A DNA stretch of 64,000 nucleotides from Bacteroidales bacterium (GCA_031551645.1 JAVBNI010000001.1:10902-74901); one strand, 5' to 3'; positions 21,533 to 46,764 are shown, counted from the stretch's first letter. Numbers and translations: made by a program. The notes: generated by a model from the sequence alone, not told the origin.

Positions 21533-22558
21533 CTAACGCCTTCCCGGATTTCCACTGCTTTGGAATTCATATCTCCGTTTGTAGCGGAAGAAACGTTCGC
21601 TTTGTCCAAAGGTGACACTGACCATCAATTCGTGCGAACCATATGAATATTTGCGGATACTGCTTAAGCTGTAGTCAAAAGCATAGCCAAAATGGTATTG
21701 TTTGTAACGAGCGCCAAACATGATACTGGTTGCTCCGTCCGATCCGCCAGCACCGGAACGGTATGACAATCCGCCCCAAAACTGGTCGTAATAATATGCC
21801 ATGGCGTTAAGGTCAATCTGCCCAACACCGTGTTCATTTAATTTGATTTGTGCACCGGGAACCACACTCCACTCTTTATTAATTTCGAAAATATAGCCGC
21901 CCAGAAGGAGATACTGGCGTTCAATCCTATAATCGGAACTATTACGCCCGCCAAACATCAGGTATGACTGGAACAGATTGGATGCCGAAAAACCGGCATA
22001 ATAATCTTTGGTAGTATAATGTAAGCCGAAAGAAGCATCCGGAACGATACTGTTAAGATCCGAAGCATTGATGAAACGGTCTTCATCCTCGGTTGTAATC
22101 TTTGAACGATCGATGCGTAACTGGAACAAACTGGCCGACAAACCGAAAGAAAGTTGTCCGAAGCGATCTTCAATATGGTAGGCATAGGTAAACTGCAAAC
22201 CGGTGGTACGTATCGGTCCCCTCATATCGTTGAAGAGGGCTGCACCCAAGCCTACATTTTCGGGACTGAATCCTCCTGAACTGCGACGTACCCTGTTGCC
22301 AAAAAGTCCTTCGCGCGGTACCCGTGTTTGTGCGGTTAATGTCTGATTAGACGGAGCGGCTGAGAATCCAGACCACTGGTCTTTCACGATGAGGCCAACC
22401 GACGAATAGCCATCGCTACCGCAAGCCGCCGGATTCAACAGGAACCGGTTGAAAAGATACTGGGTGAACGGTTGCGACTGCTGACCGGTCACCGTCATAC
22501 ATGACAGTAACAGGAGCGTTACACCGGCACATAAAATATGTATCTTTTTAAATATCAT
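21533..22558 (-). CDS. PorP/SprF-family type IX secretion system membrane protein
   Basis: 341 aa. The typical N-terminus is present (signal, then QQSQPFTQYLFNRFLLNPAACGSDGY...VKDQWSGF) and the rest is a beta-barrel-like Gly/aromatic-rich protein. It starts 8 bp after the type-B CTD gene. Confidence 0.85.
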   Translation of the reverse strand: MIFKKIHILCAGVTLLLLSCMTVTGQQSQPFTQYLFNRFLLNPAACGSDGYSSVGLIVKDQWSGFSAAPSNQTLTAQTRVPREGLFGNRVRRSSGGFSPENVGLGAALFNDMRGPIRTTGLQFTYAYHIEDRFGQLSFGLSASLFQLRIDRSKITTEDEDRFINASDLNSIVPDASFGLHYTTKDYYAGFSASNLFQSYLMFGGRNSSDYRIERQYLLLGGYIFEINKEWSVVPGAQIKLNEHGVGQIDLNAMAYYYDQFWGGLSYRSGAGGSDGATSIMFGARYKQYHFGYAFDYSLSSIRKYSYGSHELMVSVTFGQSERFFRYKRRYEFQSSGNPGRR

Positions 22559-22566
22559 GTGTGTAT

Positions 22567-23643
22567 TTATCGAATAATGGTGATTGTTCCAAGAATAGGT
22601 TTATTGCTCCTACCATCGTTCAAATGGATGATATAATAATAGGTTTCCATCGGCAGGACATGTCCACGGGCATCACGACCATTCCATGGATTCGACACAT
22701 ATCCTTTGGTTGAAGTAAATACCTTGCGTCCCCAGCGGTCGTACACCTCAACGATAGAGTTCTGATAATCCCGGAGAACTTTGATTTCCCAGACATCATT
22801 GTCGCCGTCTCCATTAGGCGTAAACGTATTCGGTATATCCAAATTTACAGGAAGCTCCTTGCATGCCATGATAACAATAGTATCGCTTGCTGAGCAACCT
22901 TCATGGTCGGCGCGTACCCAATACAACATGTCGCTTTGAGTATCGTGTTCGTTAACCTGGATAAATGGTGATGTGCCGCTTTCGCCGGTCGACCATGTAA
23001 AAGTTGTTCCCTGCGGATTAGTATTCGGGTAAAGTGCGTCCAACCTGAAGCCCGGCGTACAAATCATGGTATCGGGACCCAAATTAACCGCTACCGGTGA
23101 ACCCGGCAATATTTTGACATAACTGCTCAACCGGCAGTTGTTCATATCAATAGTTCTCAATTCATACGTTCCTGGCTTGGTAATAACATTGTCCTGAATG
23201 GATTTGTCCACCCATTCATAAGCTTTAAAGGCAGATGCATTGAAATCTACTGTTACCCCATCACCTTTGCATATCGTATAGCTATTTTGTCCGAATGTGG
23301 CATATTCGCCTACCACTTCAACGTTCAGGTAAGCCCAGTTACCCTCGCATCCATGTGTAGACGTCTCGCGCAAACCTAATGCATATATACCTTTGGTATT
23401 TCCCCATTTTACAATAATGGAATCGGCATATTTCTGAGCCAGTTCCCCTCCTCTAAGCGGCACCTCGTATTCGTACGTCGAACCGTCTTCACCAACAGCC
23501 TTGTACATTACCTTCGTGCCGATACAGACTTTCTCGTCCTGCGAAAATGCCGGGTGAGCGAAGATCAGCAAAGCTACCAACAGGGATAATATATGTTTCT
23601 TTTTGGACAAAGTTCGGATTCTATTTTTATTTGTTCGACACAA
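22567..23643 (-). CDS. Secreted protein with a T9SS type-B sorting domain (gliding-motility-associated C-terminal domain)
   Basis: 358 aa. The C-terminus reads IPNTFTPNGDGDNDVWEI...VEVYDRWGRKVF...WNGRDARGHVLPMETYYYIIHL...GTITIIR, the hallmark of type-B CTDs. The N-terminal module IIVKWGNTKGIYALGLRETSTHGCEGNWAYLNVEVV resembles the three upstream paralogues. Confidence 0.85.
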   Translation of the reverse strand: MCRTNKNRIRTLSKKKHILSLLVALLIFAHPAFSQDEKVCIGTKVMYKAVGEDGSTYEYEVPLRGGELAQKYADSIIVKWGNTKGIYALGLRETSTHGCEGNWAYLNVEVVGEYATFGQNSYTICKGDGVTVDFNASAFKAYEWVDKSIQDNVITKPGTYELRTIDMNNCRLSSYVKILPGSPVAVNLGPDTMICTPGFRLDALYPNTNPQGTTFTWSTGESGTSPFIQVNEHDTQSDMLYWVRADHEGCSASDTIVIMACKELPVNLDIPNTFTPNGDGDNDVWEIKVLRDYQNSIVEVYDRWGRKVFTSTKGYVSNPWNGRDARGHVLPMETYYYIIHLNDGRSNKPILGTITIIR

Positions 23644-23695
23644 ATTTTATGACACAGTGCCGAATGATTTTTTTTATTTTGTTACATCCGCCATC

Positions 23696-23722
23696 CCTGT
23701 ACAGGCAAATTACCTGTACAGG
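23696..23722. promoter_or_regulatory. Two copies of the 10-bp perfect palindrome CCTGTACAGG, 7 bp apart
   Basis: Copies lie at 23696-23705 and 23713-23722, 53-79 bp upstream of the type-B cargo start codon and inside the operon. The pair can also fold as a 10-bp stem with a 7-nt loop. Confidence 0.45.
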
Positions 23723-23783
23723 ATTGCGAACTGTAACATGATGAAACAAATAACTATTTTATATATTTTAACTTATGATCTGA

Positions 23784-24707
23784 TTAAGGCATGTTTTTAA
23801 CATGTTCCAATTTCTTGGTCTTCGGAGCAGGATATACATTAACGGTATATACATCCGCAGCTGCCGGAATATGAGTGCCGACTACAGCAGCAACACTCGT
23901 TTGATCAAGCGATTTGCGAGAAATCCGGTCAGTCAGGGTATTGATGGTTATCGTATAAATACCACTCTTATCCGTCTGTAGATTATCCAGATTAGCTGCA
24001 GGAATAACTATATCATACTGTCCGCTTTTTCGTCCGTCAGTACCAACCTCTACGGCAGTATAAGTACCAAGAGTTGTAGCCCCGGTTCCATCAAGCTTTG
24101 TATATTTAACAGTATAGCTTACTATCCATTTTCCATATCCGGTCATAGTGAGGGGAATGGTAACTGCAGTAGCGGCACAACCTGCTGTTTCTTTTACGGT
24201 AGGCCATTGCAAGGTAGGCTTAGCCACAACCTGGATACGGGCAATGGAATCTGTCCCGGTACAACCTGCAACATTGGACGGAAGGATAATGCTCCGCTCA
24301 TTGACCACAAGCGAATATTGACCAGGAGACCCAGGCATAACAACGTTGATTTCCTTATCCGTATAATAATTGGGATAAGCAGCATCGGTACTAGCTGTTG
24401 CAGATGTTAAGGTTGTCCCCTTGTTAATAGCCCAAGCTAAAGGAGTTCCTGTAACCGTGGATAAATAACCAGTATAAAACGCCCACTTGAATTCCGATTT
24501 CATTTTATTTTGAGCAGCCAGACCCACAATGACAGGGTCTCCTGCCATTTTATACGGCATACGGCTACCGACGGTCACCGTATCGATACTCTCTGTACCG
24601 GTAGTTGTGAATTCGGTATAATTCGGCGTTTGTGCAGAAACAGTCATCGACAACAACGCAAATGCTGCTGCGAAAAATCCTACTTTAAACATGTTATTTG
24701 TTTTCAT
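23784..24707 (-). CDS. Secreted protein, uncharacterised paralogue family (P1)
   Basis: 307 aa with an SPI-type signal (ALLSMTVSAQ). It shares with P2 and P3 the motifs DTVTVGSRMPYK, a GC-x-G beta-module and the C-terminal YTITINTLTDRISRKS. It has no lipobox and no T9SS CTD. Confidence 0.75.
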   Translation of the reverse strand: MKTNNMFKVGFFAAAFALLSMTVSAQTPNYTEFTTTGTESIDTVTVGSRMPYKMAGDPVIVGLAAQNKMKSEFKWAFYTGYLSTVTGTPLAWAINKGTTLTSATASTDAAYPNYYTDKEINVVMPGSPGQYSLVVNERSIILPSNVAGCTGTDSIARIQVVAKPTLQWPTVKETAGCAATAVTIPLTMTGYGKWIVSYTVKYTKLDGTGATTLGTYTAVEVGTDGRKSGQYDIVIPAANLDNLQTDKSGIYTITINTLTDRISRKSLDQTSVAAVVGTHIPAAADVYTVNVYPAPKTKKLEHVKNMP

Positions 24708-24748
24708 CTTATTTGATTTTTTAAATTTTCTTGTTTTTTATTTTAAGC

Positions 24749-24780
24749 CGCTGTCAGGGTCATCCGACCACTGACAGGGC
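24749..24780 (-). repeat. Conserved bulged hairpin (REP-like), copy B, between P2 and P1
   Basis: The plus strand reads cgCTGTCAGGGTC-atcc-GACCaCTGACAGggc. On the transcript (minus) strand it has the same sense as copy A. The stems are identical and only the loop differs. Confidence 0.6.
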
Positions 24781-24793
24781 AGGTTTATCTTTA

Positions 24794-25711
24794 TTAATAA
24801 TTACCATTATTGGGCAAACGATAGATCGGACCGGTTTCAACAGGCTTCAATACACTATAAGTGAAAGTGGCAGAACCTCCTACTGTAAGTAAACCGGCTC
24901 CGGTACTGGGAGCGTTTGATTTACGTGATATACGGTCGGTCACCTGAGTGATGGTTACTTCATACTTGCCATGCAACTTAGCGTCATTTTTAAGCATGAT
25001 GGTTAATATCCCCTTCCCGCTTACGATGGGAACAGAAACATTTGTTCCATAGGTAGTTTCGGGAGTTCCTGAAACAGGTGTGAAAACCATTGTGTAATTT
25101 ACCTTTATTTGTGACGATGCGGTCGTAGGCGTTAATTCGAAAGGATGATTAATACCGGCATTAACCTGAGTTTGCGTATAACATGCACCGTCCTTATAAT
25201 CAGCCGGACTTCCCGCTTTATCAAAAGTAATGGTCGGTTTCGGGATAACAGCCACAGGTATTTTTGTTTCAGTTCCCGGACATCCGTTAGTCGGGTTTTC
25301 CGTTACCCTGATGGTATCCACACCTGCCGTATTCCCCCACAAAATCGAAATAATATGCTTGTTGGTCGGGGTACCGGTTGTGGCTCCCAATTCTAATGGA
25401 CTTCCACCGTTACGTCTGAATCCCCAGCTGAAAGTTGATAATACTTTTGTAAAATCAGCCGCATTTTCGGGCGTATCGTATTTGAAATCGGGATTGGCTG
25501 TTGCGTCGGGCAATACAAAGTACTTCATGGTTGAGGTAACGGTTACCGAGTCGCGAACTTCCTGCGAAAGAGCCGGTCCACCGGTACTGTTGTATCCATT
25601 CTGGTAATAATCTTTTTCAAGCGTTACCTTGTTAGGAGCCGTTTGCCCGTAAACATTAGCTATTAAGAAAAACAGCAGGGCTACAATACTATATTTAACT
25701 AAATTTTTCAT
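24794..25711 (-). CDS. Secreted protein, uncharacterised paralogue family (P2)
   Basis: 305 aa with a signal (FFLIANVYGQ). Shared motifs are RDSVTVTSTMKYFVLPD, ISILWGNTAGVDTIRVTENPTNGCPGTETKIPVAVIPKP and YEVTITQVTDRISRKS. Confidence 0.75.
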   Translation of the reverse strand: MKNLVKYSIVALLFFLIANVYGQTAPNKVTLEKDYYQNGYNSTGGPALSQEVRDSVTVTSTMKYFVLPDATANPDFKYDTPENAADFTKVLSTFSWGFRRNGGSPLELGATTGTPTNKHIISILWGNTAGVDTIRVTENPTNGCPGTETKIPVAVIPKPTITFDKAGSPADYKDGACYTQTQVNAGINHPFELTPTTASSQIKVNYTMVFTPVSGTPETTYGTNVSVPIVSGKGILTIMLKNDAKLHGKYEVTITQVTDRISRKSNAPSTGAGLLTVGGSATFTYSVLKPVETGPIYRLPNNGNY

Positions 25712-25731
25712 TATCCTGATGTATTAATGGA

Positions 25732-26697
25732 TTAGAAATTATTCGGAACATGATAAGTCTTACCGGCTTTCGGTTGCGGCAATACATAATATGTAAACTG
25801 GTTATCTGTTGTTGTGGTCGAAACATTGGCGGTTGTTATGCCGCATTTTGTAGCAATACGGTCGGTGATCGATTTGATGGTAACCACGTATTTTCCAAAA
25901 TCGTTAAATTTAAGGGATAACTGACCGGTAGCGGCATTGGCGCTGGCAAGTGTCACCGTTTGGTCGCCACCTTCAGTACCATCATCTTTTGTAATGGAGT
26001 ATGTTATGACAACTTTATTAGCTTTACTGATAACAGCGCCGGTTGCTGTCGAAGCCGGGATCAACGGAAAGTCGAAAATCGGATATTCATTACCACTACC
26101 ATCAGCCTCATTGGGATCAAAAGTAGCACATTCGGCAGCCGTACGCGTACCGTCTTTCAGGCCAAACATAACATTCGGTTTAGGAATAACTGTCACGGGT
26201 ATCGTGTTTGGTTCCCCATCACATGTTACAGACAACCCTGTTATTACGGGTTTTTCCACAATGGTAATATCACCTTGGCCTTCGGCTGTCCATTCAATAG
26301 TCACATAAGGCGAAGTATTGGTGGTATTTTTATTTTCATAAGCATTCAAAGTACCGATTGCTGATGGAATTGTCCATACAAAATTCGATGTGGTAATGGA
26401 CGTATTGGTATAGACATTTTGATCGTAATAAGTCTTGTTGTAAAACTTGTCGGGAGCAACAAAGTATTTCATCTTGGAACTGACCATTACGGAGTCTCTG
26501 GTTTCACGACCTGATGGATCAGGGGTTCCAATGGTCGTATTATTTTTATTATTACCATGCTGGTAATATCCTGCCTTATCCAGAACGATGGTAACGGGAA
26601 TCGGATCAGGCATAGCCTGACCTGAGACATGAATAACTCCAAACATCAATAACCCGAAAGCTATGATACCCCATTTTTTTGTATACTTGTTGTTCAT
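25732..26697 (-). CDS. Secreted protein, uncharacterised paralogue family (P3)
   Basis: 321 aa with a signal (FGVIHVSGQ). Shared motifs are RDSVMVSSKMKYFVAPD, VTIEWTAEGQGDITIVEKP...CDGEPNTIPVTVIPKP and YVVTIKSITDRIATKC. Confidence 0.75.
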   Translation of the reverse strand: MNNKYTKKWGIIAFGLLMFGVIHVSGQAMPDPIPVTIVLDKAGYYQHGNNKNNTTIGTPDPSGRETRDSVMVSSKMKYFVAPDKFYNKTYYDQNVYTNTSITTSNFVWTIPSAIGTLNAYENKNTTNTSPYVTIEWTAEGQGDITIVEKPVITGLSVTCDGEPNTIPVTVIPKPNVMFGLKDGTRTAAECATFDPNEADGSGNEYPIFDFPLIPASTATGAVISKANKVVITYSITKDDGTEGGDQTVTLASANAATGQLSLKFNDFGKYVVTIKSITDRIATKCGITTANVSTTTTDNQFTYYVLPQPKAGKTYHVPNNF

Positions 26698-27150
26698 TTT
26701 ATTTTCTTATTCGATTATAACAATAAATTCAAATTACCACATTATACGTTAAACTTTGTTTGAGGTTGCATTCTTCGAAAAATTTTCTTACTCTAAATGC
26801 TTTATTCAAATAACCATTATTTATTTTAGCCTGAAAACAAACAATTTACCAAACATCATATATAAAGGAAAAATCGACATTAATGTTCGAAACAAAGGCA
26901 TTCATACATCATTTTTGTTTATTCGTCATAATTTTCCGGACGTTGGTAAATTAATGTAAGGGAAACTCTTCTCCAACACAGGGTATGACAAGATGCTTGG
27001 AAGAAACCAATGATGGTTTAAACCTCCGGAATGAGTTGCAAAAATTTTATATCAGAAAGAAACAGTTCGTGCGCTTACACAAAATATATGCGTCCATTCA
27101 ATCGTAAGAATTTGTAAAATATATTGAAAGACAAACAGTAGTTTCAAATT

Positions 27151-27200
27151 ATCAATCCGTGTACGCACACAAAAAAATCTATTAATCCGTGTGTGCGCAC
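27151..27200. promoter_or_regulatory. Direct repeat of a 20-mer (ATYAATCCGTGTnnGCnCAC) with 30-bp spacing; the second copy holds the palindrome TGTGCGCACA
   Basis: atcaatccgtgtacgcacac (27151-27170) and attaatccgtgtgtgcgcac (27181-27200) match at 16 of 20 positions. They lie just 3' of the sensor-phosphatase stop codon and about 450-500 bp upstream of the P3 start codon. Confidence 0.35.
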
Positions 27201-27232
27201 AGCTTATAAAATGAAAGTATATCTAATCACAT

Positions 27233-30200
27233 TTAAACCCGGATGCCGATTAGCAGAACATCATCGACTTGATCAATATCCCCCTTCCAAAGGTCAAAGT
27301 TTTCTTTAATCACCCGATGTTGCTCGTCCATATTCCGGTTATGAATATCATTAAAAACATTTTGCAGCCGGTTCATTTTAAATTTCTTCCCTCCCGGGCC
27401 ACCAAATTGGTCGGCATATCCATCGGTAAACAAATAAATCACATCTCCTGGAGACAGTTGCATTTCCACCATTTCAAAGGATTTATTTTCCAGCACCTGC
27501 CCACCGATCGACGAACGGCTACCCTTATATGAAGTCGCAGCTCCATCGTGATAGACGACGAACGGACGCATGGCTGAGGCAATCTTTACCTGATGTGTTT
27601 CGGTATTGATTTCGCACACGGAAAGATCCATCCCATCATTCGCCTGTTCCGATTCCCGGTTTTGATTCAGCGTCGATTGAATATTTTCATCCAAACGATA
27701 GAGTATATCCAAAGGTGATCGAACGTCAGGACGTATGGCAATATCTTTAATAAGCGTAGTCCCGATAAGTGACATAAACGCTCCGGGAACACCGTGTCCG
27801 GTTGAATCGGCACAAACGATCAACAAGTTCTTGGTCTGTGGAAAATACTCAAACCAATAAAAATCACCGCTAACAATATCCCGGGGCCGGTAAAAAACGA
27901 ACGCTTCGGTACAATGCTCGAGTAACGTGCTGGTCGATGGCAACACACTGAATTGGATACGTTGGGCATAGTTGATACTATCGGTAATATCCCTGTTTTT
28001 GTTCTCGATCTCTTCTTTTTGTTCACGGACTTCTTTGGTTCGCGCAGCCAATTCCCGCTCCAGGTATTCCTGTTGTATCCGGTGGTTACGTTCCCTGACC
28101 ATGATAATCACGTACACAACACCCACCACAGCGCCTATTACCAGAATAGTAAACCACCATGATTTCCAGAAAGGCTTACGCACTTTCAATGAAAACAAAA
28201 GTGTTTTTTCGGTACAGTTATCACTATTGCAAGCTTTCACCCACAGCTTATAGTCTCCGTCTTCCAAACGGGGATAAGTCACAAAACCAGCATTTGACGG
28301 CGCCGACCATTCACTGTCATATCCTTCCAATATATATTGATAAGTCACTGATCCGGGGTTACGAAACTGTAATCCGATGAAATCGAACTGTACCTTATAA
28401 CGTCCATATGATAAAGTTACCGGTTGATATGGATTATAATTTTTTTCGCCAATCATCACATCGGTTAGATTCAACATCGGCGCCTGATTCTGGTTTTTAT
28501 CTGCAACCAGGTTATACACAAGTACCCCGTCGGTAAGCCCCACCAGCATTTCACCGCTATTGTTCACCAGCATTGCATTGGGGTTTACGTCACCGGTGAT
28601 ACCGACCTCGTGTCCGAACTGCATAATGGTATGCCGTTGAGTATTGATACGACTCATTCCCAAGCGATGTCCCGCCCATAGATGATCGTTGTCGTCAACA
28701 ACCATCGCATAGCAAAAATCGGATTTCAAACCATCAAGCGTCGTGAAGTGGTAAACCGTATCATGCGCTATGTCGAACATATAAATACCACGCCCAAGCG
28801 TCCCTGCCCAAAAATTTCCGTTGTTATCACTGGTAACAGTTGAAAATTCGATTTCACTTTCACCTTCAAGGGTGTATTTTTTGTCTTCATTAACTGCAAC
28901 AATTGAGTTGCTATTAGTTGCTATCCAAATAATATTTTCCCGGTCTTTATATATATCGCGGATATTGTTATGCGGCAATCCTTCGGAAGTGTTTTTTGCC
29001 TCAACCGCCCCGGTTTGCGTATTTACAATAATCACCCCATTACGCGATGCATACCATATCTTGCCGTCCAACGAAGTGATAGCCTGTATGGCATTGGACA
29101 AGGAATTCTCCGAACGATAAACTAAAAATACCTGATGGGTATCTTTAACCATTTTATAAAGGCCGCTTTTTTCGGTACCAATCCATAAATCACCTTTCGC
29201 ATCCGTGTGTAAAGCCGTAATCCTATCATTAGGCACCCCATTGGCACGTCCTAAAACAACCGTTTTTTGCTCGGATTTTGATGTTATCTTCATCATAACA
29301 CCTATACCTGCAACCCAATATTCGGAGTCGTCAACCGATAAAAGAGCTGTTGCATTATTACCGATCGACTCTGTATTTTCGAAAAACGAGATTGCCAGGT
29401 TGGTCAAACACGCCAAGCCTTGTCCGTAGGTACCTACCCAAAGGTTTTGTTGGTTATCAAAAAACACTTGCTTGACAAAATCAGTACCCAAGCCGTTCGT
29501 GCTGTTGTAATTGAATATTTTTCCAATAGTCAGATCCGGTGCATACCGTACCCTGAAAAGTCCTTCACCAAGAGTCGATATCCAAAGGCTGTTTTGTTCA
29601 TCCTCATAGATCGATTGTACCCGCGCATCTTCAAGGCTGGGAATATCCATTTTATGTACCATGTATTCGCTCCCTGTAAAACTGATATTAAATATGCCAT
29701 CATCCTCAGTAGCTACCCAGAAATTATGGGATTTCTTTTGCGGAATGATCGCCTGAACTGTCATTCCTGACAACTGATCCACAGCTGCGTTGAAATCTAG
29801 GTTTGAACGGTTTTTCTGATAATCGTAAATATACAATCCATCCTGGCAACCGATAAACATCCTGTTTTCATCAATAAAGCAAGCAGAATGAATCAACTTG
29901 TCTTCAAAACCTTGTGAAAGATATTCTACTTTCTGCCCGGTAATGCGTGTTATTCCTTCTGTCTGGGTCACAACCAAGATTTCACCCTTAGGCGCTTGTA
30001 TGATCTGGTTGACGGATGTATTGCTTTGCGAAGTATCAGCAGGGAAAAAGTTGTAACCATCATATTTCACAACAAGCCCATCATTATACCCGAACCACAC
30101 GTTACCGGTAGTATCTCTGAAAGCGGTTGTAACATTGGCTAACGGCAAATCGTTCTCTGGCGTTTCGAAGTTGAATCCATCGTAACGGCAAAGGCCCATC

Positions 30201-30376
30201 CCGGTGGCAAACCAGATAAAACCATGTTTATCCTGCGTAATGGAATAAATGGTATGGTGACAAATACCCTTATCGATACCATACTGTTGGAACTTATAAA
30301 TCTGGGCATAGTTGGTGTGGCATGGTAAAATAAGGATTCCCAGCAAGGCCACAAACAAAGCAACCGTGTTTCTCAT
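27233..30376 (-). CDS. Periplasmic beta-propeller/Y_Y_Y sensor fused to a cytoplasmic PP2C-type (SpoIIE) Ser/Thr phosphatase
   Basis: 1047 aa. After the signal come repeated two-component-regulator-propeller units (GFIWFATGMGLCRYDG, NLWVGTYGQGL, DLWIGTEKSGLY, NFWAGTLGRGIY). A Y_Y_Y domain follows (YQYILEGYDSEWS...YPRLEDGDYKLWVKA), then a TM helix (WWFTILVIGAVVGVVYVIIMV), a coiled coil, and a PP2C/SpoIIE domain (SGDFYWF...CADSTGHGVPGAFMS...NDGMDLSV...LFTDGYADQFGG). Confidence 0.85.
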   Translation of the reverse strand: MRNTVALFVALLGILILPCHTNYAQIYKFQQYGIDKGICHHTIYSITQDKHGFIWFATGMGLCRYDGFNFETPENDLPLANVTTAFRDTTGNVWFGYNDGLVVKYDGYNFFPADTSQSNTSVNQIIQAPKGEILVVTQTEGITRITGQKVEYLSQGFEDKLIHSACFIDENRMFIGCQDGLYIYDYQKNRSNLDFNAAVDQLSGMTVQAIIPQKKSHNFWVATEDDGIFNISFTGSEYMVHKMDIPSLEDARVQSIYEDEQNSLWISTLGEGLFRVRYAPDLTIGKIFNYNSTNGLGTDFVKQVFFDNQQNLWVGTYGQGLACLTNLAISFFENTESIGNNATALLSVDDSEYWVAGIGVMMKITSKSEQKTVVLGRANGVPNDRITALHTDAKGDLWIGTEKSGLYKMVKDTHQVFLVYRSENSLSNAIQAITSLDGKIWYASRNGVIIVNTQTGAVEAKNTSEGLPHNNIRDIYKDRENIIWIATNSNSIVAVNEDKKYTLEGESEIEFSTVTSDNNGNFWAGTLGRGIYMFDIAHDTVYHFTTLDGLKSDFCYAMVVDDNDHLWAGHRLGMSRINTQRHTIMQFGHEVGITGDVNPNAMLVNNSGEMLVGLTDGVLVYNLVADKNQNQAPMLNLTDVMIGEKNYNPYQPVTLSYGRYKVQFDFIGLQFRNPGSVTYQYILEGYDSEWSAPSNAGFVTYPRLEDGDYKLWVKACNSDNCTEKTLLFSLKVRKPFWKSWWFTILVIGAVVGVVYVIIMVRERNHRIQQEYLERELAARTKEVREQKEEIENKNRDITDSINYAQRIQFSVLPSTSTLLEHCTEAFVFYRPRDIVSGDFYWFEYFPQTKNLLIVCADSTGHGVPGAFMSLIGTTLIKDIAIRPDVRSPLDILYRLDENIQSTLNQNRESEQANDGMDLSVCEINTETHQVKIASAMRPFVVYHDGAATSYKGSRSSIGGQVLENKSFEMVEMQLSPGDVIYLFTDGYADQFGGPGGKKFKMNRLQNVFNDIHNRNMDEQHRVIKENFDLWKGDIDQVDDVLLIGIRV

Positions 30377-30510
30377 GATTCGTTACCTAATTTTTTAAGT
30401 ACTCGTTTATAAATAATCGACGTTTTTGCCTTGATGTATAATATTGATTTATGTAATTTGTTCGCCTGAATGGCGTAGTCGGACAGGCGCTCATTTTCAA
30501 TTCTCAACTA

Positions 30511-31509
30511 TTATTTGGCAGGACTTCCTTTCTTGCGCGCATTGATCGCGGGTTTATATTTTGGCACCCCACCAATAGGGCTGGCAAAGAATGGAAGTAA
30601 CTCATTACGTTGGTTACGCACATTGATTACCACGTTGTTGTTTTTAACCGGGGAATTTTTCCTTTTGATAAATTGGAAATCGAGCGATTTTCCTTTTTCT
30701 CCGTCCATAACAGCAAATTCACTTTCAGCCCATACGGCATCTTTCGATACGGTACAAAACTGTTCACGCCGGACTTCAGACGAAACACGAATTACCCCGT
30801 CGTCGTCCCAATCGAAATTTCCCTGCCTTACTTTGAGACATTCCTGGTCTATATAAGGATATATGTGTGACACTTGTTGGGGGTTATCATGCATACGAAA
30901 TGAATATTCGTATGCAAAAGCATTACCGCCCTCAATCGGGATATTTTCATTGGCCGATGTACTTAAAAAATAGCGGTACATGTTTCCGTCATCACCAGCG
31001 ATTCCATCGCAAATCACTTTGAAAACATAACAGCCGAACTTGGAATCGAATTCACCTTCGGTAGGGTTGAACGGCCCAAAAGTATACCATTTATTGTCGT
31101 ATTTCGGATCGACGCCAAATGTTTTAGTTGCCAGCAGGTTTCCACTTTTATAATTTCCTACGGGATCGACCCCCTTTGCGTCAGGATGTGACCACGCTTC
31201 CTTACCACCATATACGGAATACTGCATTTTGGTATCGAACACACCATTCAACTCATCATACATTCCACCGATATCGGGATCAAACACACGAATGAAAACC
31301 ATACCTTTATAAGTCTCGGGTACCTGGAAGAAAAATGTCTGTGAAAAATCATCATCACCCCACAAAATATCCGCTTTATTCCCAAAAGTCATCAAAAAAG
31401 GGATATTTTCTTCTTCCGAAGGAACGGCTTGCGCATGTAAACTAAATCCTATAAAAAGCAGAAAAACAGAAATAAAAAAACCTTTCACTTTCAAATAATT
31501 AAATTTCAA
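30511..31509 (-). CDS. Secreted protein of unknown function
   Basis: 332 aa with a signal peptide (FLLFIGFSLHAQA) and a basic C-terminal tail (KYKPAINARKKGSPAK). I recognise no family motif. It lies immediately upstream of the sensor-phosphatase on the same strand. Confidence 0.6.
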   Translation of the reverse strand: MKFNYLKVKGFFISVFLLFIGFSLHAQAVPSEEENIPFLMTFGNKADILWGDDDFSQTFFFQVPETYKGMVFIRVFDPDIGGMYDELNGVFDTKMQYSVYGGKEAWSHPDAKGVDPVGNYKSGNLLATKTFGVDPKYDNKWYTFGPFNPTEGEFDSKFGCYVFKVICDGIAGDDGNMYRYFLSTSANENIPIEGGNAFAYEYSFRMHDNPQQVSHIYPYIDQECLKVRQGNFDWDDDGVIRVSSEVRREQFCTVSKDAVWAESEFAVMDGEKGKSLDFQFIKRKNSPVKNNNVVINVRNQRNELLPFFASPIGGVPKYKPAINARKKGSPAK

Positions 31510-31633: not shown

Positions 31634-32323
31634 TCATAACAATCTTTTTATTCGAAGATTCCGTATTTCGCCCGTAGTAAGATAAGTCGACAGTCCCAGC
31701 GACGTGGCTAAAATTCCTCCGCGAAGGTGGATTTTCTTACCGGCTGTTGCTATATCAACAACCTGCACGGTATCAACCGAAGCCTGTATACTGTCGGGTG
31801 TAACGCGCAATTGCACCGGATACCATCGGTCATCCCTGAAGGTAATGTAGGTTGTGGTTTCGTTATCCGATGCATCATAACCGTCAATACTGGATAAACC
31901 ACACGTTGAACCACCCCATCCGCCAACAACCAAGGTGGCGTAAGTATCATTATACGAGAAAGTCAAGCCGGCAAAAAAATCGTGCCCATCTATACGTTTT
32001 GCTTCAAATGCAATCATGTAGTTATTCGCCGGTAAAGGTTCGCCAATCCATTGTACCCCGGTCAATGTCCCGTTAATTGCCATGGGTAGGACAAGGATAT
32101 ATCCTTCCATATAAGGGTTACCCTCGCCACCGTACCGGATAGTTTCCCACCGGGATAGCGTATCTTTATCTATCAGAAGATCCCAGCCTTCAAAGACCGG
32201 CTGTTTGTCTTCCACAACTGTTACCGATTCCGTGTGTCGTCCACTTTGAGATGAACGCTTGCATGAAGCGGTTAACAGGGCAATTAACCAAACGTACAAG
32301 ATAAAAAGATATCTGACTTTCAT
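31634..32323 (-). CDS. Lipoprotein, possibly of concanavalin/LamG-like (DUF1080-type) fold
   Basis: 229 aa with a lipobox (LLTASC). The beta-rich sequence includes VVGGWGGSTCGLSSIDGYDASDNETT. The family assignment is tentative. Confidence 0.35.
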   Translation of the reverse strand: MKVRYLFILYVWLIALLTASCKRSSQSGRHTESVTVVEDKQPVFEGWDLLIDKDTLSRWETIRYGGEGNPYMEGYILVLPMAINGTLTGVQWIGEPLPANNYMIAFEAKRIDGHDFFAGLTFSYNDTYATLVVGGWGGSTCGLSSIDGYDASDNETTTYITFRDDRWYPVQLRVTPDSIQASVDTVQVVDIATAGKKIHLRGGILATSLGLSTYLTTGEIRNLRIKRLL

Positions 32324-41263: not shown

Positions 41264-41644
41264 CTAACCTACGACCTCTATCATCTTAAAAGGTATGCGA
41301 ATGATGGACTCATAGTCTTGTCCGGCTTCCAGCATATCCTCATCGTCTTCGTCATAAAACCAATTAATAGTAACTCCCGAGTTTGCTTTTTGAATGGCTT
41401 CCAATTTCTTGAAGACATCCAGGATACATTTTGATGAACTGGTATTGAAATACTCCAATTGAATATTAACCTGTGTTTGGGGTTTAGCTTCTTTCGCATA
41501 AGCTTCGAGCCAATCGACCAAGGGCTTATAAAATTCAATGGAGTTTTCGGGGATTGAACGTCCTTTGATTTCGATCAAGCCTTTCGATGCATCAAAGCGC
41601 ACAGTTGGTGTTTTGGGAGTTCCTTCTATTGACAACGTGTTCAT
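41264..41644 (-). CDS. DUF1987 / SiaC-like partner-switching protein
   Basis: 126 aa. The sequence reads EGTPKTPTVRFDASKGLIEIKGRSIPENSIEFYKPLVDWL...IQLEYFNTSSSKCILDVF. By my count the Thr in FNTSS is residue 68. Confidence 0.8.
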   Translation of the reverse strand: MNTLSIEGTPKTPTVRFDASKGLIEIKGRSIPENSIEFYKPLVDWLEAYAKEAKPQTQVNIQLEYFNTSSSKCILDVFKKLEAIQKANSGVTINWFYDEDDEDMLEAGQDYESIIRIPFKMIEVVG

Positions 41645-41664
41645 ACTTTATAATTTTATGCTAA

Positions 41665-42216
41665 TTACACTAAAACAAAAATATCTAATCTGTAAAAATA
41701 ATACGAATCATTATACTGATAAAACTGATATCCAAGTTTTTCTTCCGATTTCCTTGCAATATCAATTAAGCCCAACCCCCCTCCTCCTTTGGATGACAGC
41801 TTCTGGTAATTGAGAATAAATTTATACATTTCTTTTAATTCTTCAGTAGACAATGAATTGAGTTTCTCAATTTTTTCGGAAAGAAACTTTACTTTATCCA
41901 CTGCCACAAAATTACCCACTGTCAATTGATATTTACCCTCCAGCTTTTTGATGATGACCATTCCATATTTTTTATCTAAAGTCTCCACCAAATCGGCTGG
42001 TACATCATCCGAATGATGATAAAGATTTTGAAGGCATTCTACCATAACATTATAGATTTTTTTTCTCACTTTGAGATCTGTTGATGTCTCAGCTAATTTT
42101 TCTTCTATATCCGTCAAGATGGTATTAATCTGCTCAGACGATATATCCCCTCCATACGCAAAAAAAACATCACCCCCACAAATTTCGGCAAACAACTGAT
42201 TAATATCAAAGCTCAT
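41665..42216 (-). CDS. SiaB-like (DUF6272) GHKL-fold protein kinase
   Basis: 183 aa with the motifs YNVMVECLQNLYHH and SSKGGGGLGLIDIARKS. It lies 20 bp upstream of the DUF1987 gene. Confidence 0.7.
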   Translation of the reverse strand: MSFDINQLFAEICGGDVFFAYGGDISSEQINTILTDIEEKLAETSTDLKVRKKIYNVMVECLQNLYHHSDDVPADLVETLDKKYGMVIIKKLEGKYQLTVGNFVAVDKVKFLSEKIEKLNSLSTEELKEMYKFILNYQKLSSKGGGGLGLIDIARKSEEKLGYQFYQYNDSYYFYRLDIFVLV

Positions 42217-42257
42217 AAAGACCCTTTATGAAAGAATAAAATCCTAAATATTGGTTA

Positions 42258-42265
42258 CAAATATA
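42258..42265 (-). promoter_or_regulatory. Bacteroidota -7 promoter box (TAnnTTTG on the minus strand)
   Basis: The plus strand reads CAAATATA, i.e. TATATTTG on the minus strand. It lies 42 bp upstream of the SiaB-like start codon. Confidence 0.4.
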
Positions 42266-42391
42266 CATCTTTTATACGGAAATAATGACACAAGGTTACA
42301 TCACCCTGTGTAAAAAATAAAACATATTAAAAAATGTATTGTTGAATCAGTGTTTAAAAACGGCTGAAGGAGCGCTATTAAAATAATGGAG

Positions 42392-42419
42392 AATTGAAAA
42401 TTGAAAATTGAGAATGAAT
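42392..42419 (+). repeat. Tandem heptamer array (AATTGAN x4)
   Basis: The array reads aattgaa aattgaa aattgag aatgaat. It lies in the divergent SiaB / ABC intergenic region. Confidence 0.7.
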
Positions 42420-42768
42420 ACAAATTTCATTAAATCAGTACTATATATTTTTAAAATGGTGATTATTTATCAGCAAGTATTTAAATGAACAATATATGCG
42501 CAAACCATTAAAAATAGAATAATTTGTCATGCAAAAACAAATCCTCTTCTGACTATGAAGATAAAATTCGTATACACAACTGGTTGATAGGCTTTAACAA
42601 TCAATATCAAAGTAAACTTAAAAAATAAGTCGGAAAATAAGAAACATTATTCCTTTTTTTTCGTAAAACGAGGTGATATTTTTTATCAAAAACCGGCTTG
42701 GTTTGTTTATGTCAGTGTGCAGATAAATACTATTTCGAGAAAGTTACATATAAAGAGGTAATCTTAAT

Positions 42769-45700
42769 ATGAGTGAAGAAATTTTAAGGGCGTTGATGCA
42801 ACTGTTTGCATTAATTGTTAAGCAAGATGAAGGGGTCTTAAGCGGTGAACGTGCTTATGTTGAGAGTTTTCTCAACCAGCAACTGAATCAGGAAACCGCC
42901 AACGAGTACCTCAAATTGTTTGACAAGCAGTCCTCGACCGATGAAGACAAAGATGCCGATCCGGAAAAAAAAGTGAAACTGACATCCGTAAAAGATTCGG
43001 TACGGGTACTGGGAATCTGCCGGAAAATCAATAAAACTCTGACACAGGAACAAAAGGTAGTATCGTTGGTACGTTTGTTCGAATTGGTGAATGCCGACCG
43101 GCGGTTTACCGACCAGCGCATGGCAATCATCAATACGGTAGCGGAGGTTTTCAAGGTTTCAAAAGAAGAATTCCAGCACATCGAAACTTTTGTATTAAAA
43201 AACAAACCCGAAGAACTGGATCTATCGGATATTCTGATAATCAGCAGTGATAAGGCTGCTTGCCAAAACGCAAAACATATCGGTACGGAAGAATTACAAG
43301 GAATGATTGTTATTCTACGTGTTCCGAGTGTCGACCTCTATTTTCTCAAATACACAGGCAATGAGTCCCTTTTCCTCAATGGATTGGGATTGAACAAGCG
43401 CCGCATTTACCTGTTTGCCAGCGGTAGTACAGTAAAATTACCCAAAGGTAAACCAGTATATTACAGCGACGTAGTAGCCCATTTCCTAGCCGATCTCACC
43501 GCAAACAAGATTTCGTTCGAGGTAAAAAACCTTGATTTCAAATTCCCCAATGGCGCTACCGGCCTCCGCAACATCAGCTTTACCGAAGGACATGGCAAGC
43601 TTATTGGTATCATGGGAGCCAGTGGCGCTGGAAAGACGACACTGTTAAATGTGTTGTGCGGATTGGAAAACCCCTCGAAAGGCGAAGTTTTGATCAACGG
43701 CATCAATCTGCATACCGAAAAGGAAAAACTCGAAGGCGTAATCGGCTATATCCCGCAGGATGATTTGTTGATTGAGGAGTTGACTGTATTCGAAAACCTT
43801 TACTACAATGCCAAACTCTGTTTCCGTGACAAAACCGAAGAGGAATTGGTGGTATTGGTAAACAAGACATTGAACAGCCTGGGGTTGTACGATCGTAAGG
43901 ATCTGAAAGTGGGATCGCCACTAAACAAGACAATCAGCGGCGGACAACGTAAGCGTTTGAATATTGCTTTGGAATTGTTGCGCGAACCATCTATTCTTTT
44001 TGTAGATGAACCGACATCGGGCTTATCGTCCAGCGACTCCGAAAATGTGATGGACCTCCTCCGCGAACTGGTGCTGAAAGGAAAACTGATTTTCGTGGTC
44101 ATTCACCAGCCTTCATCCGATATCTACAAGATGTTCGACAAGATGATCATACTCGACACGGGCGGTTATATGATATATTATGGTAACCCTGTCGAAGCGG
44201 TGATGTATTTCAAACGTGCCGACGAACAGATCAACAGCGATGTGGGCGAATGCCAGGTGTGCGGGAACGTGAATCCTGAGCTGATATTCAATATCATAGA
44301 GGCAAGAGTGGTTGACGAATTCGGCCGCTATACCAACAAGCGCAAAAAATCGCCACCGGAATGGGAAGATTTATATCAGAAAAATTTTGTTCCCGAAGCG
44401 CAGGATGATATCCAAGAAAAACCACCTAAGGCGCTGAATATTCCCAACTGGTTCAAACAATTGCGCATTTATACCGTCCGCGATTTCTTCTCGAAAATAA
44501 GCAACAAGCAATATCTCTTGCTTACCATGCTCGAAGCGCCCGTATTGGGATTCATACTGGCATATGTAATCCGTTACATCGCCGACCCCATGTCGAACGT
44601 GTATATTTTCCGCGAAAACGAGAATGTACCCATTTTTATCTTCATGAGTCTCATTGTATCCCTGTTCCTGGGCTTGATCGTGAGTGCCGAAGAAATATTC
44701 CGCGACCGTAAAATCCTGAAACGGGAAGCTTTTCTTAATCTGAGTAAGTCAAGTTATCTCGTTTCCAAAGTTTTGATACTAATCACAATATCTGCCATTC
44801 AGGCTTTACTTTTTGTATTGATTGCCAACACTATCCTGGAAGTAAAAGGAATGTATTTTGCTTACTGGCTGGCATTATTTTCTACGGCAGTATTTGCCAA
44901 CGTATTGGGATTGAATATCTCCGCTTCGTTCAACTCGGCTGTAACCATCTATATCATCATCCCTCTGTTGATGATCCCGATGATGGTACTCAGCGGCGCC
45001 ATGTTCAGCTTCGACAAACTGAACCGTAACGTCGGGAGTGTCAACAAAGTACCACTGGTTGCCGAATTCATGGTAACACGTTGGTCGTATGAGGCGTTGA
45101 TGGTGCATCAATATAAGGACAACAAGTTCGAAAAGTATTTTTATGATATTGAAAAACGTGAAAGTATAGCCGATTTTCGCCAGGTATATCTGATCCCTGA
45201 ATTGGAAAAACGATTTAACCAGTGCTATGATGAATTGACAGAAACCGGTAAAATTGAGAAAAGCAAAAACGCTTTGCTAGTGTTGTATAACGAAGTGAAA
45301 AAGGAGTTGGCTGCGAATCCTGCAGCTCAATATGATCTTTCGTTACTGACGCCTGCAAAATTTGATCTTGATGCTGCTTTCAACCTTCAGGATTTCATCA
45401 ACCTGATGGAAAAACATTATATGGAGCAATTTGCTCTGGCCAATGGGGAAAAAGAACGTGTAATCGGGTTTATGCTGGAAAAGAATGCCGAAGCATACAA
45501 CCGGCTGAAAAATACATATCAGAATGAGCACCTGGGCGAAATTGCAAAAAAATCGTTTGAAAAAAACAAGATATTGGAATTCGACCATGAAATGGTACAG
45601 CAAATCGATCCGATATATATGGATCCAACCACTACCGGACTGGTCAATGTACGTACCCATTTTTTCGCTCCAAGGAAATATTTTGCAGGAACCTTCTTCG

Positions 45701-45822
45701 ACACTTATTGGTTTAATATTAGCGTGATTTGGTTCTTCTCGATCATATTATACATCATGTTGTATTTTGATGTGTTGAAACGGTTGATGAATATGTTTAG
45801 CAATATACAATTCAAGAAATAA
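42769..45822 (+). CDS. Fused ABC transporter: TerB-like N-domain, uncharacterised linker, ABCG-type ATPase, ABC-2 permease and a long C-terminal extension
   Basis: 1017 aa. It carries Walker A GASGAGKTT, the signature ISGGQRKRL, Walker B ILFVDEPTSGL and the H-loop VIHQPS (ABCG/White-like). About six TM helices span residues roughly 590-790, followed by a helical segment of about 200 aa and a final TM. The N-terminus ILRALMQLFALIVKQDEGVLSGERAYVESFL looks TerB-like. Confidence 0.8.
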   Translation: MSEEILRALMQLFALIVKQDEGVLSGERAYVESFLNQQLNQETANEYLKLFDKQSSTDEDKDADPEKKVKLTSVKDSVRVLGICRKINKTLTQEQKVVSLVRLFELVNADRRFTDQRMAIINTVAEVFKVSKEEFQHIETFVLKNKPEELDLSDILIISSDKAACQNAKHIGTEELQGMIVILRVPSVDLYFLKYTGNESLFLNGLGLNKRRIYLFASGSTVKLPKGKPVYYSDVVAHFLADLTANKISFEVKNLDFKFPNGATGLRNISFTEGHGKLIGIMGASGAGKTTLLNVLCGLENPSKGEVLINGINLHTEKEKLEGVIGYIPQDDLLIEELTVFENLYYNAKLCFRDKTEEELVVLVNKTLNSLGLYDRKDLKVGSPLNKTISGGQRKRLNIALELLREPSILFVDEPTSGLSSSDSENVMDLLRELVLKGKLIFVVIHQPSSDIYKMFDKMIILDTGGYMIYYGNPVEAVMYFKRADEQINSDVGECQVCGNVNPELIFNIIEARVVDEFGRYTNKRKKSPPEWEDLYQKNFVPEAQDDIQEKPPKALNIPNWFKQLRIYTVRDFFSKISNKQYLLLTMLEAPVLGFILAYVIRYIADPMSNVYIFRENENVPIFIFMSLIVSLFLGLIVSAEEIFRDRKILKREAFLNLSKSSYLVSKVLILITISAIQALLFVLIANTILEVKGMYFAYWLALFSTAVFANVLGLNISASFNSAVTIYIIIPLLMIPMMVLSGAMFSFDKLNRNVGSVNKVPLVAEFMVTRWSYEALMVHQYKDNKFEKYFYDIEKRESIADFRQVYLIPELEKRFNQCYDELTETGKIEKSKNALLVLYNEVKKELAANPAAQYDLSLLTPAKFDLDAAFNLQDFINLMEKHYMEQFALANGEKERVIGFMLEKNAEAYNRLKNTYQNEHLGEIAKKSFEKNKILEFDHEMVQQIDPIYMDPTTTGLVNVRTHFFAPRKYFAGTFFDTYWFNISVIWFFSIILYIMLYFDVLKRLMNMFSNIQFKK

Positions 45823-45855
45823 TTTATAACTTTGTAATATTTAAAATAGAATCTC

Positions 45856-46764
45856 ATGATAAACAAATTGTTGTCTGTCATTGTTTTCGTAGCGTTTGTC
45901 ATGCAGGTAAGTTCATGCACCTGTAGCCGGACTAAATCAAACACAGATGAGTTCGACATTCCCGACTCGATTCGTAACACATCGTTGAAAGTCTCGGATA
46001 ATGTGATGCAGGAAATGGTTGGCAATATCTCGTCGCCTATCGAGATGGCATCACTTATCAAAAGTCTGGGAGTTCCGTTCTCACAAAAATATCTGGCTAC
46101 GACCAAGAATGTGTCGACCTATAACACGAGTTATGCAAAAGCCTTTAACCTGGGTATTTTTGGCGCTGACCTTGGTTTCCTGAACATGTACGGTAAAACG
46201 TCGATGGTATTGGATTATATCACCGCAATGAAAAATCTGGCAGATGGTATTAACGTCGGACAGTTTTTTGATTTTTCGACACTAAAACGATTGGCGACCA
46301 ACAACCAGAATATTGACTCATTGGTGTATATTTCGCAGCAAAGTTTCAATAAAATGGACAAATATCTCCAAAAAAATAATCGGGGAAATTTGAGTATCCT
46401 AATGGTAAGCGGGGTTTGGATGGAAGGGCTGTATCTTTCATGCCAGTTTTATAAGGAAACCCACAACACACGGTTGGCTGAAAGTATTGGTGAGCAAAAA
46501 ATACTGCTTAACCAATTGTTGATTATTCTGAAAAATTACCAGAGCGAAAAATATATTGCTGACTTGATTTCCGATCTGGAGCCTCTCAAAAAGATTTATG
46601 AGGATATCCGTATCACGATTGAAAAAGGCGAACCGCAAGCCGTAGAGGTTGATGGTATGTTAACCATCGTCCAGACCGAAACCAGTACAGTACATTACAC
46701 TGAGGAACAAATGAACGATCTTGTTGTCCAATCAGAAGTAATACGCAGTAAATTGATTAAGTAA
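45856..46764 (+). CDS. Lipoprotein of unknown function (predicted helical)
   Basis: 302 aa with a lipobox (MQVSSC). It lies 33 bp downstream of the ABC gene. No motif recognised. Confidence 0.6.
   Translation: MINKLLSVIVFVAFVMQVSSCTCSRTKSNTDEFDIPDSIRNTSLKVSDNVMQEMVGNISSPIEMASLIKSLGVPFSQKYLATTKNVSTYNTSYAKAFNLGIFGADLGFLNMYGKTSMVLDYITAMKNLADGINVGQFFDFSTLKRLATNNQNIDSLVYISQQSFNKMDKYLQKNNRGNLSILMVSGVWMEGLYLSCQFYKETHNTRLAESIGEQKILLNQLLIILKNYQSEKYIADLISDLEPLKKIYEDIRITIEKGEPQAVEVDGMLTIVQTETSTVHYTEEQMNDLVVQSEVIRSKLIK

Follow-up and report, generated by a model that had tools for sequence, protein, structure and literature searches.

What does a periplasmic sensor of the kind found in hybrid two-component sensors (HTCS) control when it carries a PP2C phosphatase, and which protein would that phosphatase act on? 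The question is raised by a locus of a Bacteroidales bacterium (GCA_031551645.1), which was analyzed within a stretch of 64,000 nucleotides (C189:10902-74901, from a 5.4-Mb assembly in 298 contigs), here called the window. Positions 27,233 to 31,509 of the window hold two genes, one for a sensor phosphatase and, upstream of it, one for a secreted protein here designated u332.

27233-30376, minus strand: sensor gene, 1047 amino acids
30511-31509, minus strand: u332 gene, 332 amino acids, TTG start

The two genes are separated by 134 bp, and 535 bp lie between the sensor and the gene downstream (25732-26697). An earlier note, made from the sequence alone, had described both open reading frames with the 332-amino acid secreted protein upstream, and the coordinates, strand, TTG start and signal peptide were verified. 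The analysis revealed that the sensor is a SiaA-type phosphatase with an HTCS-type input. It further points to proteins of the SiaC family as a well supported target class and to u332 as, most likely, the partner of the sensor outside the cytoplasm.

Architecture of the sensor

The sensor consists of the following parts.

28382-30376, minus strand: N-terminal signal/anchor (residues 1-24) and double Reg_prop beta-propeller (residues ~25-665; Pfam Reg_prop, 1.1e-33)
28217-28366, minus strand: Y_Y_Y Ig-like domain, residues 671-720 (Pfam PF07495, 4.6e-11)
28091-28159, minus strand: single transmembrane (TM) helix, residues 740-762 (hydropathy scan)
27887-28090, minus strand: cytoplasmic linker with coiled coil, residues 763-830 (alignment to SiaA 6K4E and to the NCBIfam SiaA profile)
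27233-27886, minus strand: SiaA-type PP2C domain, residues 831-1047, and stop codon (SpoIIE, NCBIfam SiaA, 6K4E)

Residues 1-741 match the solved periplasmic domains of HTCS proteins (4A2L/4A2M, 7.6e-52; also 3V9F, 3VA6 and 3OTT), and the propeller region is homologous to BT4663 and other HTCS proteins. Hydropathy scanning showed an N-terminal signal or anchor and one internal TM helix. The Pfam, hydropathy and PDB-sequence matches bear out the earlier note, which had read the protein as an HTCS-style sensor with propellers, a Y_Y_Y domain and one TM helix. Its proposal that a PP2C output replaces the kinase, receiver and AraC modules agrees with the Pfam annotation; no HisKA, HATPase, REC or AraC domain was found in a Pfam scan of the 1047-amino acid protein. 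The linker holds a DSINYAQRIQ motif that is common to SiaA-type phosphatases.

The C-terminal part matches SpoIIE (PF07228) above the gathering score (residues 849-1047; 76.5 bits against a cut-off of 25, 3.5e-21). Residues 769-1047 also match positions 383-657 of the 658 positions of the NCBIfam SiaA profile (NF038263; 1.5e-51). The full-length score of 175.8 for this profile lies far under the equivalog cut-off of 700, because the N-terminal sensor part differs and only the linker and the PP2C domain align. The sole match of the PP2C part among PDB sequences is the PP2C domain of SiaA itself (6K4E, 5.9e-33). Conserved active-site residues of SiaA are D457, D474, G477, D600, G601 and D653, and D534 and D604 support a third metal (PMC7647112). 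Alignment with 6K4E showed that SiaA residues D457, D474, G477, D534, D600, G601, D604 and D653 correspond to D838, D857, G860, D916, D985, G986, D989 and D1038/D1039 of the sensor, so that every metal-binding residue of SiaA is kept. A degenerate phosphatase, which the earlier note had named as a finding that would undo its reading, is ruled out by this full set of conserved catalytic residues. Judged by its residues, the PP2C domain is intact. It is 36-40% identical to the PP2C domains of the three other SiaA-type phosphatases of this genome.

The homologies thus show an HTCS-type sensor part joined through a TM helix and a coiled coil to an intact PP2C of the SiaA type. In terms of classification the protein combines a sensor phosphatase of the SiaA type with an input part of the HTCS type. 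It is not a SiaA equivalog, because both the full-length score and the operon context fail, and it is not an HTCS, because the kinase, receiver and AraC modules are absent.

SiaC proteins as target class of the phosphatase

The window also encodes two proteins of the Sia system, the first of which the earlier note had put forward as a SiaC-like candidate substrate.

41264-41644, minus strand: SiaC-family phosphoprotein (DUF1987), putative substrate (NCBIfam SiaC, 4.5e-30; PF09345, 2.7e-45)
41665-42216, minus strand: SiaB-family kinase, putative opposing kinase (NF038262, 1e-43, above the family cut-off)

Direct inspection of the SiaC sequence showed that it keeps the phospho-acceptor motif NT68SS, with Thr68 as acceptor. 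The phyletic distribution of both families was analyzed in 401 genomes sampled evenly from the Bacteroidota, in which SiaC was scored by PF09345 and SiaA-type PP2C by similarity to residues 761-1047 of the sensor of the window (E<=1e-25). SiaC was found in 24 genomes and SiaA-type PP2C in 24 genomes, and the two sets are identical. All genomes of this sample with a u332-sensor pair (6/6) are SiaC-positive. In a second sample, of 41 relatives, SiaC is present in 18/18 u332-positive genomes and u332 is absent from 19/19 SiaC-negative ones. At the level of families the count is ~8/8, and in the order sample the u332-positive families (4/4) fall within the SiaC-positive ones (7/20; p = 0.007). The test of co-occurrence with DUF1987/SiaB pairs for which the earlier note had called is positive, as seen in the identical sets of 24 genomes and in the counts of 6/6 and 18/18.

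Genomic context was compared in 19 orthologous loci (L001-L004, L008, L009, L011, L027-L032, L045-L049 and L051). A locus search with the sensor protein alone yielded 7 loci, and the wider context was obtained through u332 homologues and whole-genome searches; gene starts in the loci of relatives are longest-ORF or automatic gene calls. In L032 (genome G363) a SiaC gene directly follows the orthologous sensor on the same strand with a 33-bp gap, and in L048 (G427) a SiaC gene is convergent with the sensor and lies 7 bp after it. Complete siaABCD-like units were found in another class of Bacteroidota, where L054:3420-8724 and L055:3589-9022 are operons of a sensor, SiaB (DUF6272), SiaC and a small GGDEF cyclase. 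The sensors of these operons (1177 and 1186 amino acids) have the Reg_prop/Y_Y_Y/TM/SpoIIE arrangement and can be aligned with the sensor of the window from end to end, and each of the two genomes has one SiaA-type PP2C and one SiaC.

Genome G107, which is 100% complete in 4 contigs, encodes four SiaA-type PP2Cs, including a u332-linked sensor, and a single SiaC. This SiaC, 67% identical to that of the window, likewise belongs to a SiaB-SiaC-TerB_ABC arrangement. Should SiaC proteins be the substrate class, G107 would offer no other target than this orthologue of the SiaC of the window. The type of the PP2C, the co-occurrence, G107, L032/L048 and L054/L055 together make the SiaC family the most likely substrate class, as the earlier note had suspected. 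We consider it well supported by these sequence comparisons that the target of the PP2C would be a SiaC-family protein.

It could also be that the PP2C acts on another protein, such as a STAS-type anti-sigma antagonist, an envelope or secretion protein phosphorylated on Ser/Thr, or the sensor itself. PP2C substrates are generally varied, neither SiaB nor SiaC is encoded within 10 kb in 17/19 of the orthologous loci, and the genome also encodes a GAF-PP2C that is not of the SiaA type (C90:71670-72902). Such a substrate is nevertheless quite improbable in view of the identical SiaA-type PP2C and SiaC sets (24 and 24 of 401), the SiaC genes beside the sensor in L032 and L048 and the operons of L054/L055. 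Furthermore, no SiaC-negative genome in the samples of 401 and 41 genomes was seen to carry the u332-sensor pair.

The assembly encodes five SpoIIE domains, of which four have SiaA-type motifs. The SiaA-type PP2Cs are the sensor of the window, a 1120-amino acid propeller paralogue (C159), a 419-amino acid TM/coiled-coil form (C219) and an 865-amino acid form (C90). The latter is encoded directly upstream of SiaB and SiaC, and the three genes make up a canonical siaABC unit. The only other SiaB gene is that of the window (41665-42216), whereas SiaC is encoded three times, on C90, at 41264-41644 of the window and by an orphan gene on C158. No phosphatase gene accompanies the SiaB/SiaC pair of the window.

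Several further observations were made on these gene families. In the Bacteroidales genomes G427, G428, G430, G432 and G435, 11-21 SiaC (DUF1987) paralogues were counted, compared with 1-3 in most carriers. The canonical unit on C90 (C90:17629-25388) continues after SiaA-SiaB-SiaC with a 997-amino acid protein in which histidine-kinase- and receiver-like motifs were read by eye, and through which this SiaC paralogue may have another output. It is preceded by a 252-amino acid membrane protein related to the SiaA N-terminus. Upstream of the propeller/Y_Y_Y/PP2C paralogue (C159:38338-42761), at 30 bp, lies a gene for a 343-amino acid protein with a signal peptide, which looks like an outer-membrane barrel, being rich in beta-strands and ending in an aromatic residue. 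A u332-like partner of this paralogue's own is ruled out; the 343-amino acid protein is not u332-like, and u332 is encoded by a single gene in this genome.

The secreted partner u332

A u332 homologue was found immediately upstream of the orthologous sensor, on the same strand, in 19/19 loci. The gap between the two genes, 134 bp in the window, runs from -4 to ~36 bp in the 19 loci of relatives. A comparison by domain in ten loci showed u332 to exceed every part of the sensor in conservation, at 50-80% identity; the PP2C domain has 40-77%, and the periplasmic domain, the least conserved part of the module, 26-64%. The u332 encoded in L048, a divergent second copy, is 46% identical, so that the range across all loci is 46-80%. 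The protein has a predicted signal peptide (residues 1-28, cleaved at AQA|VP).

u332 matches no named family. Searches of Pfam with 42 members, of NCBIfam and, as a profile, of the PDB sequences gave nothing significant. A collection of 5.8 billion proteins holds 4209 homologues (E<=1e-3), and among the best 120 of these no Pfam domain was found and each name given by the source was 'hypothetical protein'. The family has 666 matches among representatives of clusters at 50% identity. An AlphaFold2 model (pLDDT 80.7, pTM 0.78) predicts two beta-sandwich domains behind the signal peptide, and the C-terminal tail PIGGVPKYKY is conserved and disordered in this model. Membership of a known family was rejected, since there is no profile match and the low-TM Foldseek matches are insufficient for an assignment. 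A comparison of tails by eye revealed no convincing similarity to the C-terminal peptide of proteins P1-P3 of the downstream gene cassette (see below). In the alignment of u332 sequences the acidic motifs WGDDDFSQ, DxDxGG..DE, GDDGN and NFDWDxDG are invariant, and these could be metal or ligand sites.

Domains distantly related to u332 (24-32% identity) are confined to extracytoplasmic contexts, either N-terminal to long PKD arrays or C-terminal to Big_1/TIG Ig-like domains. In one case (P0126, 613 amino acids) a u332-like domain follows a BlaR1/M56 transducer module and occupies the sensor position. PKD-fused forms of 412-1671 amino acids are encoded in other classes (L033:9696-14510, L036:5519-10534, L037:9475-14379, L038:7572-10331 and L034:12345-13583). 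Those of L033, L034 and L037 adjoin genes for a histidine kinase, a response regulator-PP2C, a HAMP-cyclase or FecR, and a gene for a fused histidine kinase, response regulator and cyclase lies near that of L038. These contexts support a binding or co-sensor role for u332 outside the cytoplasm. By analogy with LuxP-LuxQ and TorT-TorS, u332 is most likely an obligate extracytoplasmic partner and co-sensor of the sensor. The earlier note had set u332 aside as unclassifiable. It was right in that there is no named family for it, but under-rated its weight, as u332 is the invariant and most conserved partner of the sensor.

Neighbouring type IX secretion genes

In 13/19 loci, from at least five families, the u332 and sensor genes close a co-directional cluster. 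The order is a type IX secretion system (T9SS) cargo protein with a C-terminal domain (CTD) of type B (CHU_C), PorP/SprF, a PorE-like protein with PD40 and PKD domains (and in some cases OmpA), u332 and, last, the sensor. Start and stop codons in these clusters often overlap or nearly abut. Six loci (L008:1-3360, L009:38-3751, L011:1-3367, L046:1-3406, L049:1-3447 and L051:18095-19999) have a ~1220-amino acid HAMP-HisKA-HATPase kinase at the head of the cluster. Its first ~830 residues have no Pfam match, and the kinase is a candidate for a further sensor of this system that has escaped annotation. In L027:4061-9568, two PorE-like genes stand between PorP and u332, for proteins of 730 amino acids (PD40/PKD/OmpA) and 1055 amino acids (PKD/OmpA).

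This arrangement allows a different reading of the input, in which the module would report not on a free ligand but on a complex of type-B T9SS cargo with a PorP-like barrel and a PorE-like periplasmic protein. u332 would then be the periplasmic adaptor that links this outer-membrane complex to the phosphatase in the inner membrane. SiaC could still provide the output, as it would with u332 as co-sensor for a ligand. The position of the pair as the last two genes after cargo, PorP and PorE-like genes in 13/19 loci speaks for it. PorE, PorP and PG1035 form a complex, and six porP-like genes of Flavobacterium johnsoniae adjoin porE-like genes (PMC9143113). The window, which has no triad, has another cassette with type-B CTD and PorP genes 535 bp downstream of the sensor. 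The genome, of 5.4 Mb, has ~ten further CHU_C loci, which makes chance adjacency appear improbable; the cassette could reflect a functional affinity of the module with type-B T9SS units, or chance. On the other hand, 6/19 loci have no T9SS genes beside the pair, including those of the closest relatives (L001, L045 and L047). Indeed, the triad is absent from the whole clade of the window (L001, L045, L047 and the window itself), and the window has CHU_C and PorP genes downstream, no PorE-like gene and none of these genes upstream. Its cassette is not an orthologous triad, lacking the PorE-like gene and lying on the opposite side, and is not adjacent to the module in genomes of the same genus. 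Membership of one operon could also be mere co-regulation. A surface-coupled input is therefore regarded as possible but rather unlikely. Its full consequence would be a trans-envelope route in Bacteroidota, in which the state of a T9SS-anchored type-B protein, retained by the PorP-like barrel and tethered in the periplasm by the PorE-like protein, is passed through the u332 adaptor to the phosphatase, the SiaC switch and an ABC exporter (or, elsewhere, cyclic di-GMP). We hold this complete route to be unlikely; if true, it would be a surface-sensing pathway (for contact, load or ligand) built on the type IX secretion apparatus.

The cassette of the window was what the earlier note had linked to the sensor.

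21533-26697, minus strand: cassette of five genes, encoding three paralogues, a small type-B CTD protein (CHU_C, 1.3e-22) and PorP/SprF (PorP_SprF, 6.7e-69)

That it lies on the same strand as the sensor, after a gap of 535 bp, was confirmed. The specific link to this operon did not hold. The same-genus orthologue that is 68% identical (L001 = L050 = G406:C131) has no cassette genes within 16 kb downstream, and neither L045 nor L047 (u332 74% and 70% identical, respectively) has the cassette after the sensor gene. Among 14 other genomes of the genus, 13 have u332 and ten have the cassette, never on one contig. The cassette of G427 and G430, from the same order, lies on another contig than the u332-sensor module. 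A conserved link between sensor and cassette is ruled out by this synteny in the same genus and in near relatives, and the adjacency in the window is lineage-specific, because it is absent beside the sensors of relatives.

The wiring implied by the earlier note, in which the sensor controls, or is co-regulated with, the five-gene operon 21533-26697, is accordingly very improbable. In its favour are the common strand, the 535-bp gap and the scan of the intergenic gaps, in which no terminator-like site was found on the minus strand between the sensor and the cassette genes. Also in its favour, at 27060-27205 on the minus strand, just after the sensor stop codon, the gap holds two direct repeats ~30 bp apart, GTGCGCACACACGGATTAATAG and GTGCGTACACGGATTGATAA. 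The first contains the palindrome TGTGCGCACA, and a weaker third copy lies near 27065-27080; by their sequence these repeats may be operator or terminator elements. The two intergenic gaps were also scanned for promoters with the sigma-70 consensus, which does not fit Bacteroidota promoters. Against such wiring stand the loss of adjacency in L001/L050, L045, L047, ten genomes of the same genus, G427 and G430, and a PP2C output that has no direct transcriptional effect.

Upstream of u332 another gene is found on the same strand.

31634-32323, minus strand: DUF1080/3-keto-disaccharide-hydrolase-like lipoprotein, 229 amino acids (PF06439, 7.4e-06, just under the gathering score)

This gene lies directly upstream of u332, and in this lineage the two may be transcribed together. 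A gene of the same kind lies directly upstream of u332 in L047 and nearby in L045 (4817-5557), and in L047 two DUF1080-like genes (9212-9913 and 6410-7273) flank a gene for a pectate-lyase-like beta-helix. These neighbours hint at a carbohydrate theme in the Bacteroidales branch that has no T9SS triad.

Proposed mechanism

The model that we prefer is that of a two-gene module of u332 and sensor that dephosphorylates SiaC, with u332 acting as co-sensor; taken as a whole it is considered fairly probable. The sensor would be an inner-membrane phosphatase, in which a periplasmic double propeller and Y_Y_Y domain of the ligand-binding type are coupled via the TM helix and the coiled coil to a dimeric PP2C. 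After export to the periplasm, u332 would dock on the propeller domain as a ligand-binding co-sensor, and a signal-dependent movement of the dimeric sensor would alter the activity of the PP2C. This activity would strip the phosphate that a SiaB-type kinase has put on Thr68 of SiaC. The most likely targets would be the SiaB/SiaC pair at 41264-42216, which is without a phosphatase gene of its own. Unphosphorylated SiaC would then bind an output partner, which is probably the adjacent TerB-ABC exporter in this organism and is a GGDEF cyclase in Pseudomonas and, presumably, in some Bacteroidota. Four SiaA-type sensor phosphatases would converge on two or three SiaC proteins in this genome.

A number of observations weigh against this model. 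The SiaB/SiaC genes of the window lie ~11 kb from the sensor with unrelated genes between, and are not part of its operon. Three SiaC paralogues are present in the genome, and the one on C90 is already paired with its own SiaA. SiaC adjoins the sensor in just 2/19 orthologous loci. Naive hypergeometric values for the co-occurrence are ~1e-8, a figure inflated by shared ancestry. Foldseek comparison of u332 with the PDB gave weak matches to tandem beta-sandwiches (TM <= 0.26), namely the N-terminal domain of DeCLIC, the SID1 ectodomain, the tandem collagen-binding domains of ColG and PNGase F. Lastly, the evidence for the co-sensor role of u332, which we still regard as the most likely one, consists of adjacency, conservation, localisation and domain contexts.

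The proposed output partner is placed by gene order. A TerB-ABC exporter gene comes after SiaB-SiaC, or faces it, in the window, in G107, in G243 (twice) and in G103, G311 and G111, and the exporter is probably the output partner here. This exporter of ~1020 amino acids was found beside SiaB-SiaC in at least six genomes (window 41264-46764, L040-L043, L052 and L053). A homologue of a 302-amino acid protein usually comes after the SiaB-SiaC/TerB-ABC exporter genes, and in L042, L052 and L053 a SiaA of the HAMP/GAF/PAS type precedes the SiaB-SiaC pair.

Comparison with known systems

Like SiaA of Pseudomonas aeruginosa (PA0172, of the SiaABCD system), the sensor is membrane-anchored and carries a C-terminal PP2C of the same subfamily, with linker and metal residues kept. 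Proteins of the SiaB and SiaC families, the latter with the phospho-Thr68 motif, are likewise encoded in the window. Unlike SiaA, it has a periplasmic double Reg_prop and Y_Y_Y part, its gene lies apart from siaB/siaC (by 11 kb) and there is no GGDEF gene. Instead, its gene is accompanied by that of a conserved secreted protein and, in most lineages, by the genes of a T9SS cargo triad. To our knowledge, experimental characterisation of the Sia partner-switch is confined to Pseudomonas, and the input of SiaA is poorly defined there.

With HTCS proteins (BT4663; 4A2L/4A2M, 3V9F, 3VA6, 3OTT) the sensor shares two Reg_prop propellers, the Y_Y_Y domain and one TM helix, but it differs in its PP2C output and in being encoded outside a polysaccharide utilisation locus. 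We know of no HTCS sensor that needs a separately encoded periplasmic partner. In LuxP-LuxQ, TorT-TorS and ChvE-VirA, a secreted accessory protein delivers the signal to a membrane sensor encoded by the adjoining gene. As in these systems u332 is encoded beside a membrane sensor, and delivery of a signal by u332 is proposed by analogy. However, u332 is predicted to consist of tandem beta-sandwiches, without the fold of periplasmic binding proteins, and its partner is a phosphatase and not a kinase.

The order of cargo, PorP/SprF and PD40+PKD(+OmpA) genes in 13/19 loci resembles that of described T9SS triads (PG1035-PorP-PorE and the clusters of F. johnsoniae). No signalling genes are appended to the described triads, whereas here u332 and the sensor-PP2C follow in the same operon. 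In the window the triad is missing and an unrelated small-anchor cassette lies downstream. The conserved T9SS association concerns the upstream triad of cargo, PorP and PorE-like genes, not the cassette of the window. No description of the sensor-PP2C architecture, of the u332 family or of a link between PP2C and T9SS cargo clusters was found in the searchable literature.

Significance

The locus appears to present a new variant of input to the Sia partner-switch, with an accessory protein family that has not been described. Bacteroidota have many SiaA-type sensor phosphatases per genome, which would converge on a small number of SiaC proteins. In one widespread branch of these inputs the architecture is that of the HTCS glycan sensors, always together with a strongly conserved secreted protein that is unnamed in databases. 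For many orphan genes annotated as 'SpoIIE family phosphatase' in Bacteroidales this provides a concrete substrate hypothesis. u332 stands for a new family of extracytoplasmic domains, which counts at least 666 clusters at 50% identity, and the gene clusters of u332 suggest a possible regulatory link between cargo modules of type IX secretion and Ser/Thr phospho-signalling.

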